Below are positions 39,929 through 45,230 of a stretch of DNA of 64,000 nucleotides, piece after piece. Both the position numbers and the translations under genes were made by a program. Numbering within the stretch: the stretch's first letter is position 1; every line of letters starts with the position of its first letter. This DNA is from Frankiales bacterium (lineage in GTDB: Bacteria; Actinomycetota; Actinomycetes; Mycobacteriales; SCTD01), in NCBI GenBank assembly GCA_025965475.1, contig JAOPWV010000077.1:4313-68312 (forward strand). The letters are read 5' to 3'. The notes below the pieces were generated by a model that had not been told where the DNA came from, searched no databases, and was given only the letters and a program-made list of their open reading frames with translations.

Positions 39929-40330
39929 TCACTGTGGTGACAGTGGGCCGTGCGCGCCCCATTCGATCTTCGGGCAGACGTTCATGACGACGTCCAGCCC
40001 CGCGTTGCGGGCCCGCTCGGCGGCGTCGTCGTCGACCACGCCGAGCTGCATCCAGACCGCCTTGGCGCCGACCGCGACGGCCTGGTCGACGAGCGGCCCG
40101 ACGAGTTCCGAGCGCACGAAGCAGTCGACGACGTCGACGGGGAACGGGATCTCGGCGAGCGTCGCGTAGCCCTGCTCGCCGTGTACGACGGGAGCCGTCG
40201 GGTGCACCGGAACGATCCGCTTGCCCTGGGCCTGCAGGAAGGCGGCGACCCCGTACGCCGCCCGGCTCGTGTCGTTGGACAGCCCCACGACCGCCCAGGT
40301 ACCCATGGCCAGCTGGCTCGCGACAGTCAT
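39929..40330 (-). CDS. CoA-binding domain protein (YccU-like)
   Basis: 133 aa from MTVASQLAMGTWAVVGLSND...VPVHP...VDVVDCFVRSE...GAKAVWMQLG. Confidence 0.82.
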   Translation of the reverse strand: MTVASQLAMGTWAVVGLSNDTSRAAYGVAAFLQAQGKRIVPVHPTAPVVHGEQGYATLAEIPFPVDVVDCFVRSELVGPLVDQAVAVGAKAVWMQLGVVDDDAAERARNAGLDVVMNVCPKIEWGAHGPLSPQ

Positions 40331-40383
40331 GGGCCCGACACTAGGCGGCGGGGCGGGGCGGGGTCCGGGCGGCGGGGCCGAGA

Positions 40384-41721
40384 TCAGGGGCGGCCGAGGG
40401 CGCGGTAGGTCCAGCCGGCCTGGCGCCAGGCGACCGGGTCGAGGGCGTTGCGGCCGTCGAGGATGTTGCGGCCGGCGACGACCTCGGACAGGGTCGCCGG
40501 GTCCATCTCCCGGAACTCCGACCACTCGGTCAGGTGCAGGACGAGGTCGGCGCCTCGGGCGGCCTCGACCGCCGAGCTGCGGTAGCCGAGCTCGGGGTGC
40601 TGGACCTTGGCGTTCTCCATCGCCGCCGGGTCGTACACGCACACCGCGGCGCCCTGGCGCTGGATCGTGGCCGCCACGTCGAGGGCAGGGCTGTCGCGGA
40701 TGTCGTCGCTGTTCGGCTTGAAGGCGGCGCCGAGGACGGCGACCTTCATCCCGCCGAACGAGCCCCCCGCAACCTCGCGGGCGAGTTCGACCATCCGGGT
40801 CCGCCGGCGCAGGTTGATCGCGTCGACCTCCTTGAGGAACGACAGCGCCTGGTCGACGCCGAGCTCCCCGGCCCGGGCCATGAACGCGCGGATGTCCTTG
40901 GGCAGGCAGCCGCCGCCGAAGCCGAGCCCGGCGTGCAGGAACCGTCCGCCGATTCGGCTGTCGTACGACAGCGCCTTGCTCAGCAGGGTCACGTCCCCGC
41001 CGACCGCCTCGCAGACCTCGGCCATCGCGTTGATGAAGGAGATCTTGGTGGCGAGGAACGCGTTGGCCGCGACCTTCACGAGCTGCGCCGTGGCGAAGTC
41101 GGTCACGACGACGGGGGTCGGCAGGTCGATCACCGGCGCGAAGGCCGCGCGCAGCTTGGCCTCGGCCTGCTCGGACCGCACGCCGAACACCAGCCGGTCG
41201 GGGGTGAGGGTGTCCTCGACCGCGAAGCCTTCGCGCAGGAACTCGGGGTTCCAGGTCAGCTCGACGCCCACGGCCGTCGCGTCCCGCTCGAGCTGGGCGG
41301 CGAGGCGCTCCGCCGTCCCGGCCGGCACCGTCGACTTGCCCGCCACGAGCGCACCGTCGCGCAGGTGCGGGAGCAGGGCGGTGAACGCGGCGTCGACGTA
41401 GACCATGTCGGCCGCCATCTCGCCCTTCTTCTGCGGCGTGCCGACGCACAGGAAGTGCACGTCCCCGAAGGCGCCCACCTCCGCGTACGACGTGGTGAAG
41501 CGCAGCCGGCCGGAGTCGAGGTTCTTCTGCAGGAGCTCCGGCAGCCCGGGCTCGAAGAACGGCACCTCACCGTTGTTGAGCCGGTCGACCTTGCTCCGGT
41601 CCACGTCGAGCCCGAGCACCTCGAAGCCGAGTTCGGCCATGCACACGGCGTGGGTGGCACCGAGGTAGCCGGTCCCGATCACGGTCAGGCGGGGCCGGGT
41701 GGCGACGGAGGGCGAGCTCAT
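40384..41721 (-). CDS. UDP-glucose 6-dehydrogenase family protein
   Basis: LTVIGTGYLGATHAVCMAELG, GFGGGCLPKD (catalytic Cys). I prefer the ATG at 41721 over the ORF-track start at 41829. Confidence 0.9.
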   Translation of the reverse strand: MSSPSVATRPRLTVIGTGYLGATHAVCMAELGFEVLGLDVDRSKVDRLNNGEVPFFEPGLPELLQKNLDSGRLRFTTSYAEVGAFGDVHFLCVGTPQKKGEMAADMVYVDAAFTALLPHLRDGALVAGKSTVPAGTAERLAAQLERDATAVGVELTWNPEFLREGFAVEDTLTPDRLVFGVRSEQAEAKLRAAFAPVIDLPTPVVVTDFATAQLVKVAANAFLATKISFINAMAEVCEAVGGDVTLLSKALSYDSRIGGRFLHAGLGFGGGCLPKDIRAFMARAGELGVDQALSFLKEVDAINLRRRTRMVELAREVAGGSFGGMKVAVLGAAFKPNSDDIRDSPALDVAATIQRQGAAVCVYDPAAMENAKVQHPELGYRSSAVEAARGADLVLHLTEWSEFREMDPATLSEVVAGRNILDGRNALDPVAWRQAGWTYRALGRP

Positions 41722-41785
41722 GAGGCTGGAGCGTAGTGGGGCCATGGCAGTCAGTCGCCGCGCCGCGCGTCTTACCATTCCCGGC

Positions 41786-42952
41786 ATGGCCGATGTCACG
41801 GATTCGTCGTACGCGCTGTACTCCCTCACCGAGGAGCACGAGCTCCTGCGCCAGGCGGTGCGTCAGCTCGCCGAGGACAAGATCGCCCCGCGGGCGGCGG
41901 AGATCGACGAGACGGCCGAGTACCCGTGGGACGTGCACGAGGCCATCAAGCAGGCCGACCTGCTGGCGATCCACGTGCCGGAGGCGTACGGCGGCGCCGG
42001 GGCCGACCGGATCGCGCACAGCATCGTCGTGGAGGAGATTGCCCGGGTCTGCGCGTCGAGCTCGCTCATCGTGGCCGGCAACAAGCTCGGGACGATGGGG
42101 CTGATCCTGTCCGGCTCGGAGGACCTCAAAGCGCGCTACCTGCCGCTCGTGGCCCGGGGCGAGGCGACGTTCTCCTACGCGCTCAGTGAGCGCGAGGCAG
42201 GCTCGGACGCTGCGTCCATGCGCACCCGCGCGGTCCGCGACGGCGACTCGTACGTCCTCAACGGCACGAAGTGCTGGATCACCGGGGCCGGCGTCAACAC
42301 GCACTACACGGTGATGGTGAGCACCGACCCCAGCAAGGGCGCGAAGGGTGTTTCGGCGTTCGTCGTGCACGCCGACGACCCCGGCTTCTCGGTCGGCACG
42401 AAGGAGCGCAAGCTCGGCATCAAGGGTTCCCCGACCTGCGAGATCTACTTCGAGGACTGCCGCATCCCGGCGGACCGGATGATCGGCGAGGAGGGCACCG
42501 GGTTCGTCACGGCGCTCAAGACCCTCGACCACACCCGGTCGATGATCGGCGCCCAGGCCGTCGGCATCGCGCAGGGTGCGCTCGACGCGGCGGTGGCGTA
42601 CGTCAAGGAGCGCCAGCAGTTCGGCAAGGCCGTCGCCGAGTTCCAGGGCGTCCAGTTCATGATCGCGGACATGGCGATGAAGGTCGCTGCCGCGCGCACC
42701 CTGGTCTACGCGGCGAACGCCAGCGCCGAGCGCGGCGACAAGGATCTGACCTTCCTGTCCAGCGCGTCGAAGACCTTCGCGTCGGACACGGCGATGGAGG
42801 TCACCACGGACGCCGTCCAGTTGTTCGGCGGCTACGGCTACACCAAGGACTTCCCGGTCGAGCGGATGATGCGCGACGCGAAGATCACCCAGATCTACGA
42901 GGGCACCAACCAGATCCAGCGCATGGTGATGGCACGGCAGATCCTGAAGTAG
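41786..42952 (+). CDS. Acyl-CoA dehydrogenase (short/medium-chain type)
   Basis: 388 aa from MADVTDSSYALYSLTEEHELLRQ. ALSEREAGSDAASM, QLFGGYGYTKDFPVERMMRDAKITQIYEGTNQIQ. Confidence 0.92.
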   Translation: MADVTDSSYALYSLTEEHELLRQAVRQLAEDKIAPRAAEIDETAEYPWDVHEAIKQADLLAIHVPEAYGGAGADRIAHSIVVEEIARVCASSSLIVAGNKLGTMGLILSGSEDLKARYLPLVARGEATFSYALSEREAGSDAASMRTRAVRDGDSYVLNGTKCWITGAGVNTHYTVMVSTDPSKGAKGVSAFVVHADDPGFSVGTKERKLGIKGSPTCEIYFEDCRIPADRMIGEEGTGFVTALKTLDHTRSMIGAQAVGIAQGALDAAVAYVKERQQFGKAVAEFQGVQFMIADMAMKVAAARTLVYAANASAERGDKDLTFLSSASKTFASDTAMEVTTDAVQLFGGYGYTKDFPVERMMRDAKITQIYEGTNQIQRMVMARQILK

Positions 42953-43071
42953 CCCTGCTCCGCCTACGCCACGGGCGGAGGTTGCGGTGGGGTGCCCGTG
43001 GTGCTGCTCGCAACGTCCGCACGTGCAGGCGGGACGAGGCCGGGAGGGCGGACACTGTGGTGGGTGAGGGG

Positions 43072-43701
43072 CTAGAGCAACCCCTTGCTCCGGGCCAGTT
43101 GGAGCTGGGTGAAGACGAACTGGCGGATGCGGTCACCGTCGGAGATCCGGACGCCGGTGAACCGCAGACTCACGTCAGCCGGTTCCTCTTTGGCTCCTGG
43201 CCTCACGCGGACCGCGTGCGCGGCCAGGGTCAGCGGCGCGCCGACGTCCAGGTCGACGTTCATGGTGCGCCCCGGGGCCAGCTCCGGCCAGTCGGGCACG
43301 CGACAACGCAACCCGCCCTCGCTGATGTCCACCGCGACGGCGGCGTAGCTGTTCTCCTCGTGATGTAGCACGAGGGGAAGCAGGATGTCGGTGCGCACGA
43401 ACGCACGCCGCTGGCGTCTGGCGGGAGTTCCCCTGAGCTGGACGTGCCAGGTCGGCGACGGCGGAGGGGTCACCTTCGCGATGGTCACCGGCACCTCCAG
43501 GAGCCCTCCCGTTCCGCGCCAGACCATGAGGCCGGTCATGCCCACCGGAGGAAGGACGTAGCGGCCTGTCGCATCCGTCGGTGCCTCGAGCCCCAGGCCC
43601 TCATCGGTCACGGCAGTCACCGCCGCGACGAACGTATCGGCAGGCTCGTCCAACGTGATGTCGACGAGGTCGCGCACATCGACGAACTTCACTATGGACA
43701 C
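43072..43701 (-). CDS. PilZ-domain c-di-GMP receptor, YcgR-like two-domain architecture
   Basis: 209 aa with a GTG start. RRQRRAFVR (RxxxR) and DISEGGLRC (DxSxxG) motifs follow an N-terminal beta-rich domain of about 95 aa. It has noticeably more A/T-ending codons than its neighbours. Confidence 0.8.
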   Translation of the reverse strand: MSIVKFVDVRDLVDITLDEPADTFVAAVTAVTDEGLGLEAPTDATGRYVLPPVGMTGLMVWRGTGGLLEVPVTIAKVTPPPSPTWHVQLRGTPARRQRRAFVRTDILLPLVLHHEENSYAAVAVDISEGGLRCRVPDWPELAPGRTMNVDLDVGAPLTLAAHAVRVRPGAKEEPADVSLRFTGVRISDGDRIRQFVFTQLQLARSKGLL

Positions 43702-43743
43702 GGACGCACGCTAAGTCGCGTGGCTCGTCTTCGTGATCATTGA

Positions 43744-43917
43744 GACGCCGAAGCTGCCGTGTGTCGTGTCACATTCGCCGGACCACGGGCCCGCGATCCG
43801 CGTTTCGGCACTGCCACAGCAGCAGACGACGCCATCGCCGAGTCACGGCGTACGTCCGAGGACCTCGCGCGGATGAGCAGCGGACTCCAGGAGCTGGTCT
43901 CCCGCTTCCGCTACTGA
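43744..43917 (+). pseudogene. Relic of a methyl-accepting chemotaxis protein C-terminus
   Basis: Frame-1 translation ...GTATAADDAIAESRRTSEDLARMSSGLQELVSRFRY* resembles the conserved extreme C-terminus of MCP signalling domains (…ASEELSxQAEQLQxLVxRFRL). A stop at 43741 and the divergent PilZ gene leave no room for the rest of an MCP. Confidence 0.5.
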
Positions 43918-43954
43918 CACCTCGCCGGGTGCGGTCGCGTACCCGCCGGGCATA

Positions 43955-44509
43955 GTGCCGGGCATGTACGAGTATCGCCCGCCGGCGTCGGTGGGTTCCC
44001 TGGACCCGAAGCCGAACGCAGCGGCCCGCACGACGCTGAGCCGGATCATGACGACGACCGACACCAACCTGCACGGCAACGTGCACGGCGGCGTGATCAT
44101 GAAGCTGGTGGACGACGTCGGCGGGGCCGTCGCGGCCCGGCACTCCGGGGGCCGGGCCGTGACCGTCTCCATGGACGAGATGGTCTTCCTGGTGCCGGTC
44201 AACGTCGGCGACCTCGTCCACGCGCATGCCCAGGTCAACTGGACCGGGCGCAGCTCGATGGAGGTCGGGGTCCGCGTCGTGTCGGAGCGCTGGGACGACA
44301 GCTCGACGCCGACGGTGCACACCGGGTCGGCGTACCTCGTCTACGTCGCACTCGACGAGGGCGGCAACCCCCGTGCGGTGCCGCCGGTCGTGCCGGAGAC
44401 ACCGAAGGACCGTCAGCGGTACCGGGAGGCGGAGATCCGCCGGCAGACCCGGCTGGCCCGGCGCGAGGCGATCCTGCGGCTGCGCGAGCAGGAGTCGGAC
44501 GAGCGCTAG
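43955..44509 (+). CDS. Acyl-CoA thioesterase (hotdog fold, YciA-like)
   Basis: 184 aa. TNLHGNVHGGVIMKLVDDVGG...VTVSMDEMVFLVPVNVGDLV. An alternative ATG lies at 43964. Confidence 0.85.
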   Translation: MPGMYEYRPPASVGSLDPKPNAAARTTLSRIMTTTDTNLHGNVHGGVIMKLVDDVGGAVAARHSGGRAVTVSMDEMVFLVPVNVGDLVHAHAQVNWTGRSSMEVGVRVVSERWDDSSTPTVHTGSAYLVYVALDEGGNPRAVPPVVPETPKDRQRYREAEIRRQTRLARREAILRLREQESDER

Positions 44510-44522
44510 GCAGAAGGCCTGG

Positions 44523-45230
44523 CTAGGGCTTGGGCGCCAGTCGCCGCAGCCCCGCCACGTCCACTCCTGCCGTGAGCGTGACCCGCTCGGCGGCCGCCAC
44601 GGCGGCAGCGTCCCCCTCGCGCAGCAGCACCAGGCTTGCGCCGGCGGCCAGTGCCGTCAGCAGCACCGACGCGCCCAGGGGGTCGCCCGGGACCAGGCTG
44701 GTGAGCAGCCGGTCGCCGCGACCGACCCCGTCCAGGAGGCGGACCGGCCGGCCGCCGGCCTCGACCACCGGAGCGGCCGGCCGCGGGCCGCCGTAGTGGT
44801 CGGCGTACGACGGAACCTCGCGGGCGTAGTCGAGCACCGAGCCCGGCAGGTCGCCCGCCGGGGCGCCCAGAGGGTGACCGGACAACGCGAGGACGTCATC
44901 CACCCCGGCGTCCAGTGCCGCCTCGGCGTCCTGCGCGGCGACGAAGGCCGCGCCGCAGCCGGCCAGGTCACCGGCGTCCTCGACCAGGACGACGGTCGCG
45001 CCCGTGGCCGCGCCGGCGAGCAGCAGCGCCACCGTCTGCCAGTGCAGCGGCAGGAGCAGGCCGACCCGGTCCGGGCGCCCGAGCGCGTCGACGAGCAGGT
45101 TGGCGGACTTGGCCACCCAGTTGGCGGTGGTCGCGCCGGACAGCTCGACCCGCCCCGGCCCGTCGTACAGGGTCAGGAGGGGTTGCGCGGGATCCCGGTC
45201 ACCGGCCAGTCCGCCGGTGAGCTCGGTCAG
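44523..45230 (-). CDS. TIGR03089-family protein (acyl-adenylate-enzyme-like remnant fold, conserved next to LCP)
   Basis: LLTLYDGPGRVELSGATTANWVAKSANLL is typical of the family. There is no ATG/GTG/TTG near the expected N-terminus. The best candidate start is the CTG at 45230, overlapping the LCP stop (CTGA). Confidence 0.7.
   Translation of the reverse strand: MTELTGGLAGDRDPAQPLLTLYDGPGRVELSGATTANWVAKSANLLVDALGRPDRVGLLLPLHWQTVALLLAGAATGATVVLVEDAGDLAGCGAAFVAAQDAEAALDAGVDDVLALSGHPLGAPAGDLPGSVLDYAREVPSYADHYGGPRPAAPVVEAGGRPVRLLDGVGRGDRLLTSLVPGDPLGASVLLTALAAGASLVLLREGDAAAVAAAERVTLTAGVDVAGLRRLAPKP

Follow-up and report, generated by a model that had tools for sequence, protein, structure and literature searches.

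The closest described relatives of the sequence considered here are the C-terminal helices of actinobacterial-type methyl-accepting chemotaxis proteins (MCPs; Pfam PF00015), which end ...ELARMSxELQxLVxRF(R/T)Y immediately before the stop codon. In a 64,000-nucleotide stretch of Frankiales DNA (hereafter the window), a short open reading frame shares with MCP tails both the LARMSxxLQxLVxRFRY motif and an end point at the stop codon, and its last 35 residues are identical at 17 positions to each of five actinobacterial MCPs (P0083, P0107, P0038, P0016 and P0012). Unlike those proteins, it carries no hairpin tip, methylation helices, HAMP, transmembrane or sensor parts. Because every other defining part was tested for and is absent, we class the fragment, from its sequence, as homologous to MCP C-termini yet not an MCP, and as belonging to the ordinary class of truncated gene remnants. 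Like bacterial pseudogene fragments, it is homologous to part of a functional family, is missing the 5′ region and start, shows no protein-level constraint between strains and is left uncalled by gene finders; set against typical gene remnants there is nothing unusual about it, short as it is (105 nt) and free of frameshifts and internal stops. The PilZ-domain gene beside it resembles the YcgR-type c-di-GMP receptors in having RRxxxR and DxSxxG motifs, and one relative (P0002) is labelled YcgR by JGI; unlike YcgR, its N-terminal domain has no match to Pfam PilZNR, which is matched only in a distant relative (P0004) and there below the cutoff (E=2.6e-4, 21.5 versus 23 bits).

We interpret positions 43810-43917 of the window as a dead, non-functional 3′ fragment of an actinobacterial-type MCP gene, truncated at its 5′ side by a rearrangement and joined to the upstream region of the PilZ gene (Table 1), and we assign this reading a probability of about 0.9. 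The finding carries little weight beyond annotation: it shows that this uncultured actinobacterial lineage, or a DNA donor to it, once had an MCP gene of the Nocardioides, Cellulomonas and Mycobacteriales type, and the fragment marks a rearrangement breakpoint beside the gene of a PilZ c-di-GMP receptor, in a gap between two conserved genes that is variable in content across Actinomycetota. A literature search brought up nothing bearing on the MCP fragment.

Table 1. Features of the locus, in window coordinates.
Feature	Position	Strand	Description or evidence
Acyl-CoA dehydrogenase (ACAD) gene, convergent with PilZ	41699..42952	+	Pfam Acyl-CoA_dh N, M and C domains
PilZ-domain gene, 209 aa	43072..43701	-	Pfam PilZ E=4.4e-16
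PilZ upstream region common to relatives' PilZ loci	43702..43773	-	Local alignment with L004
5′ part of the stop-to-stop ORF, including GTG 43759	43744..43809	+	No MCP homology, no coding signature
Junction segment	43774..43809	.	Between PilZ upstream region and MCP remnant; contains the palindrome
MCP gene 3′ remnant	43810..43917	+	35 codons TATAADDAIAESRRTSEDLARMSSGLQELVSRFRY and native TGA; confident core 43831-43917
Spacer, remnant stop to thioesterase start codon, 46 nt	43918..43963	+	Sequence
4HBT/YciA-like acyl-CoA thioesterase gene	43964..44509	+	Pfam 4HBT E=7.8e-20; called as 181 aa in L001 and L002

Similarity of the fragment to chemoreceptor C-termini

Frame 1, from the stop that ends at 43743 to the TGA at 43915-43917, reads DAEAAVCRVTFAGPRARDPRFGTATAADDAIAESRRTSEDLARMSSGLQELVSRFRY followed by the stop (in-frame translation of 43702-43917), exactly as an earlier note on this DNA had given it; the stretch is 174 bases long and has 57 codons from stop to stop. 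The same note had recognised the conserved end of MCP signalling domains in the last ~35 residues. We retrieved MCPs with a query that could not itself supply that tail, a 115-residue consensus of the actinobacterial MCP hairpin region that deliberately ended before the tail. This query returned 7,775 proteins; the best 120 of the 7,775 all carry PF00015, and among these 120, most of those named by their source are called methyl-accepting chemotaxis proteins, from Nocardioides, Cellulomonas, Actinotalea, Paractinoplanes and Mycobacteriales MAGs. The retrieved actinobacterial MCPs end ...DLARMSxELQxLVGRFRY, as illustrated by the C-termini SGSLARMSAELQELVGRFRY (P0083), ATDLARMGSELQALVGRFRY (P0022) and VGELARMSSELQSAVSRFRY (P0038); RFRY is among the commonest endings in the set and Y is the commonest last residue.

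The 93 MCPs with a tail of canonical length supplied two tail HMMs, one of their last 32 and one of their last 40 alignment columns, which were searched against all six-frame stop-to-stop segments of at least 15 aa. The ORF is the sole match of the 32-residue model, both in the window (124,004 six-frame residues; 40.4 bits, E=1.1e-11, next best 4.6 bits) and once 160 related high-GC loci are added to it (2.52 million six-frame residues; E=2.5e-10, next best 10.7 bits). By BLASTP, it aligns to P0083 with 17 of 28 residues identical (61%, 38 bits), co-terminally at the last residue of both. The remnant averages 11.4 identities in 35 against real tails, which average 11.8 in 35 among themselves; on the tail profile it scores 42 bits against a real-tail median of 49.7, and 20% of real tails score below it. 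At the DNA level it agrees at 67 of 108 positions with the 3′ end of the MCP gene on L166, a Mycobacteriales MAG contig. On these comparisons (the tail-HMM scores, the co-terminal BLASTP match and the tail-like level of identity), we regard the derivation of the last ~35 codons from an actinobacterial MCP C-terminus as established, with homology beyond chance, and the reading of these residues in the earlier note is upheld.

General-purpose searches were silent. The 57-aa peptide has zero matches in Pfam (including MCPsignal), NCBIfam and PDB even at E<=10, and zero in a word-indexed collection of 5.8 billion proteins; tblastn against plasmids gave one match, at E=8, with no annotated feature beneath it. 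An exhaustive HMMER scan of 1.84 billion representatives returned 3 matches, all of them giant Calx-beta/Ig repeat proteins, which we rejected as compositional (residues 4-43 were matched in 5 to 8 stretches each). Such silence is expected, because a 35-residue terminal helix is too short for these searches, and given it the MCP assignment rests on the profile built in this analysis. The case is also a useful check on method: the earlier note had rightly recognised a motif of 35 residues on which Pfam, NCBIfam, PDB and both of the very large protein searches said nothing.

The similarity is significant, colinear and co-terminal with the C-terminal helix, and it is confined to it. Of a 68-position MCP profile, only positions 34-68, its last 35, align, to 43810-43914 with the stop codon directly after, and the same profile finds no MCP homology upstream of 43810 in any frame. 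Codon-position GC is 0.67/0.50/0.90 over 43825-43914, as is typical of genuine genes in this window (72% GC), and 0.78/0.74/0.52 over 43744-43824, which has no coding signature. We take the robust core of the remnant to be 43831-43914, with an extension back to 43810 likely. A regular-expression search for the MCP hairpin motif (…NAxIEAARAGExGRGFAVVAxEVRxLA…) found none in the six frames of the 64-kb window, Pfam assigned the ORF to no family at E<=10, and a four-helix bundle of ~250 or more residues together with sensor, transmembrane and HAMP parts is impossible in 57 codons. The start of the PilZ gene lies 43 nt upstream of the ORF on the opposite strand. The earlier note had argued that the preceding ~250 residues cannot exist beside a divergent PilZ gene beginning at 43701; the gene is where it was placed, and with 57 codons between stops and neither hairpin nor MCP homology upstream in any frame, those residues are absent.

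The PilZ gene, the junction and the history of the locus

The PilZ protein combines a ~95-residue N-terminal domain with a C-terminal PilZ domain, and its c-di-GMP-binding motifs, as read from the translation, are intact (RRxxxR as RRAFVR, DxSxxG as DISEGG). Against the relatives L004 and L005 its dN/dS is 0.25-0.43. With the motifs present and this long-term ratio, the gene looks functional. As separate observations, a long-term dN/dS of 0.25-0.43 is fairly high for a functional gene, and the comparison with the near-identical strain contig L003 gives 4 non-synonymous and 0 synonymous changes. The family is rare: five relatives exist in the whole 5.8-billion-protein collection, and the PilZ query has zero matches in GTDB genomes. 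A TANNNT -10-like hexamer (TAGCGT, 43708-43713) lies 6 nt before the PilZ start codon, and its position is kept in the alignment as TAGCCT in L004 and TACTCT in L005; at that distance from the start it suggests that the PilZ transcript is probably leaderless.

In L004 (1-2069), whose PilZ ortholog is 80% identical, the order is the C-terminus of an FtsX-like permease, 87 nt, PilZ and a luciferase-like monooxygenase gene, with the permease gene upstream of PilZ and on the same strand. Homology between the window and L004 covers PilZ and the 72 nt upstream of it, to 43773, and then ends (local alignment of window 43699-43773 with L004 671-745, score 63). A hint in the multiple alignment of a relic of the FtsX-gene 3′ end beside PilZ was rejected, as its local alignment score was 23 against 20.3±2.8 for shuffled sequence, and neither the ACAD-PilZ spacer nor the remnant-thioesterase spacer has homology above shuffled controls to L004, L005, L021 or L052. 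Between the end of the PilZ-locus homology and the start of the MCP similarity, these alignments establish a rearrangement breakpoint at ~43774-43830.

Several smaller features fall at or near this junction. A GC-rich palindrome, CGGACCACGGGCCCGCGATCCG, occupies 43779-43800, exactly within the junction that separates the MCP remnant from the PilZ upstream region; a substitution in the strain contig L002 falls inside it (43786), and it could be an operator, a hairpin or a product of chance. A weak inverted repeat around PilZ and its conserved upstream region (42994-43007 with 43777-43790, 12 of 14 positions complementary) was discarded as no better than eight other pairs in 1.3 kb; its right arm begins 4 nt past the end of the L004 homology. 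Compared with L003, the ~1.0 kb of PilZ and its spacers (42953-43975) contain 19 substitutions, 8 of them in the 119-nt ACAD-PilZ spacer, against 5 substitutions and one 24-nt indel in the ~2.7 kb of 40229-42952 (UDP-glucose dehydrogenase gene, UDPGDH, ACAD gene and ~150 nt past the UDPGDH stop). A recombination tract could account for the contrast of 19 with 5, as could strong constraint on synonymous sites in the flank.

Under our preferred reading, a rearrangement with its breakpoint between 43774 and about 43830 would have taken away all of the MCP gene that lay 5′ of its last ~35 codons, including the sensor, the transmembrane and HAMP region, the methylation helices and the signalling hairpin. 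What was left would then have been joined to the upstream region of a PilZ gene and, having no start of its own, would encode nothing functional and drift neutrally. We infer the truncation event, and with it this order of steps, as no relative with an intact MCP at the site was found.

To place the locus in context we used 160 thioesterase-anchored loci from genomes and metagenomes, the best thioesterase identity among them being 73%. From Streptomyces through to Frankiaceae MAGs the genes keep the order UDPGDH(-)/ACAD(+)/.../thioesterase(+)/LCP(-), and the gap between ACAD and thioesterase genes varies: about 75 nt in the MAG contigs L021 (5925-6000) and L052 (5930-6000), where the two are directly adjacent, ~2.7 kb in many Streptomyces, and about 3 kb in the Frankiaceae MAG contig L009 (223-3251), whose large gap ORFs resemble, by eye, a secreted protease, a large uncharacterised protein and an ECF-type sigma factor. 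Neither the MCP hairpin motif nor a PilZ gene occurs near the thioesterase gene in any of the 160 loci, a weak negative given that all are distant (identity <=73%). The 34 larger window ORFs scanned with Pfam include no che or fla genes; the window is a housekeeping and cell-wall region, with FolD-, malate/lactate dehydrogenase-, isocitrate dehydrogenase-, succinate dehydrogenase-, methylmalonyl-CoA mutase- and carboxyltransferase-type proteins alongside dTDP-sugar and cell-wall glycosyl genes (Pfam).

The earlier note had seen the locus as the deletion scar of a chemotaxis and motility island, with the PilZ gene as surviving neighbour, and had proposed the ACAD and thioesterase flanks as the place to look for retained che and fla genes. 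With no che, fla or MCP gene at the syntenic site in relatives or in the scanned window ORFs, no PilZ gene in any of the 160 loci and the L004 PilZ gene in another neighbourhood, that comparison did not bear the idea out, and the motility-island narrative is unproven. A link of this PilZ gene to flagella would draw on a database label and on the sub-threshold YcgR N-domain match in a distant relative. Should the complete genome prove to be without che and fla genes, the fragment would count as a small fossil of a motility since lost.

As for the MCPs whose tails are most similar, their genes head che operons or, in another case, lie among unrelated genes, and none is beside a thioesterase or PilZ gene. 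Those of P0083 and P0107, from Mycobacteriales MAGs, head che operons with cheB, cheR, cheY and cheX, which are absent around the remnant. As an aside, the Mycobacteriales MAG contigs L166 (1-5256) and L170 (1-4216) both have a che operon of MCP, cheB, cheR, cheY, cheX and cheY, followed by a conserved protein of 147-160 aa for which no Pfam hit is recorded; L166 additionally has a 321-aa protein without a Pfam hit between MCP and cheB.

Three histories could lead to this arrangement, and the available relatives cannot decide between them. In the first, the idea of the earlier note, which is possible but tentative, a divergent PilZ gene and an intact MCP gene (possibly with further che and fla genes) stood between ACAD and thioesterase genes, and a single deletion, running from the PilZ-MCP intergenic region to codon ~N-35 of the MCP gene, left the tail. 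The tail reads away from PilZ and its own stop lies 46 nt before the thioesterase gene, the PilZ upstream region is intact, and the JGI name "flagellar brake protein YcgR" on a close PilZ relative, with the weak YcgR N-domain in a distant one, would be compatible with motility. Against this stand the lack of che and fla genes in the Pfam scan and of the hairpin motif in six frames, the 0 of 160 thioesterase-anchored loci with MCP or PilZ nearby, the che operons of the most similar-tailed MCPs (cheB-cheR-cheY-cheX), which have no counterpart here, and the FtsX-like permease gene preceding PilZ in L004, which would require an extra rearrangement.

In the second history, likewise tentative, a cassette of ~0.7-0.8 kb comprising PilZ and its 72-nt upstream region, inserted in inverted orientation, replaced all but the last ~35 codons of a plus-strand MCP gene resident between ACAD and thioesterase genes. 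One event would then account both for the point where similarity to the PilZ locus stops (43773) and for the shortening of the MCP gene at ~43810, one fewer than in-situ deletion needs given L004, where PilZ has another context; the adjacency of ACAD and thioesterase genes in L021 and L052, the variability of the gap elsewhere and the greater strain divergence of 42953-43975 relative to its flanks (19 versus 5 substitutions) are also in keeping with it. It has no mobile-element signature in its favour, however, the only flanking inverted repeat being at chance level; no L004 homology is detectable downstream of PilZ, and no relative has an MCP gene in the gap. Because PilZ lies elsewhere in L004 and the homology ends 72 nt upstream of it, a rearrangement that moved PilZ is no less likely than a plain deletion in situ.

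The third history, which we find doubtful, makes the fragment filler DNA: ~100 nt of MCP tail that came from an MCP gene at some other place in the same genome, or in a different one, and were captured in the course of illegitimate recombination or break repair. Unrelated sequence at both ends and the lack of synteny for an MCP gene at the site would fit, but the exact end at the native stop and the frame kept throughout are what a resident gene truncated at its 5′ side should leave, and would be coincidental for filler.

Coding status of the fragment

The region is carried by three near-identical contigs (L001, L002 and L003), and the ORF is open in all four copies, with no gene call in the fragment in any of the three. 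Relative to L003 it has 5 substitutions (43813, 43838, 43840, 43847 and 43861), 5 of 5 non-synonymous (A>T, A>D, E>Q, R>P and D>N) and 0 synonymous, a small sample that is unremarkable under neutrality; L002 brings one further substitution in the ORF, R>G. Over the same comparison with L003, UDPGDH shows 4 changes in 1.4 kb, all of them synonymous, and ACAD a single change in 1.2 kb. The L003 copy of the remnant scores 10 bits lower on the MCP profile. These counts show no purifying selection on the peptide; as they comprise five or six substitutions among near-identical strains, weak constraint could still be present. No homologous small protein exists in the 5.8 billion clusters, and the scan of 1.84 billion representatives gave spurious matches only. 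The changes being all non-synonymous and no small homologue being found, we favour a decaying remnant over a live gene, one that is presumably untranslated and drifting neutrally. It is probably recent, since it has kept its reading frame, native stop and codon-position GC pattern, with no frameshift or internal stop in 105 nt.

The earlier note had allowed that the GTG at 43759 might still give a 52-aa peptide. That start does open a 52-aa ORF in the ORF list (43759-43917), and a live small gene would be either this protein or a 14-aa peptide from the ATG at 43873, acting as a free MCP C-terminal helix. We consider this very improbable. The open frame in 4 of 4 copies and the identity of the last 17 codons among strains speak for it, yet at ~3% divergence a run of 17 codons without change is to be expected, every strain difference is non-synonymous, with R>P among them, the first half of the ORF lacks a coding GC pattern, inspection by eye shows no Shine-Dalgarno-like sequence before the GTG, and gene callers skip the region in three assemblies. 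The short ORF as a conserved independent gene in relatives, which the note had named as a finding that would overturn its reading, was looked for in both protein searches; neither contained a homologous short protein.

It is similarly improbable that the remnant has been kept for a function, whether as a peptide mimicking a chemoreceptor helix or as formerly coding DNA recruited as promoter or leader of the thioesterase gene. In the latter case the thioesterase gene would have lost co-transcription with ACAD when the oppositely oriented PilZ gene arrived.

Least credible is a chance likeness, in which GC-rich non-coding DNA with an alanine- and arginine-rich translation happens to resemble a coiled-coil motif: silent standard libraries and the purely compositional matches of the exhaustive HMMER scan would suit it, but the six-frame HMM test in compositionally matched DNA (E=2.5e-10, a 30-bit gap to the best background), the co-terminal fit to the profile with the stop next to it and a codon GC3 of 0.90 effectively refute it.

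Other observations in the window

The window organism has no close relative among GTDB species representatives. For its thioesterase the best identity in the metagenome collection is 73%, and Frankiaceae MAGs reach 68-69%. The spacer 43918-43963 has no terminator or promoter consensus and no Rfam match, and the Rfam and promoter/terminator scans of 42900-44100 returned zero signals. Strain L003 lacks 24 G-rich nucleotides (GGCGGCGGGGCGGGGCGGGGTCCG, 40344-40367) that lie just past the UDP-glucose dehydrogenase gene at its 3′ end. Between the thioesterase and LCP genes, a 197-aa gene (44523-45116, minus strand), which bears only a faint resemblance to AMP-binding enzymes, belongs to the TIGR03089 family (E=1e-31).
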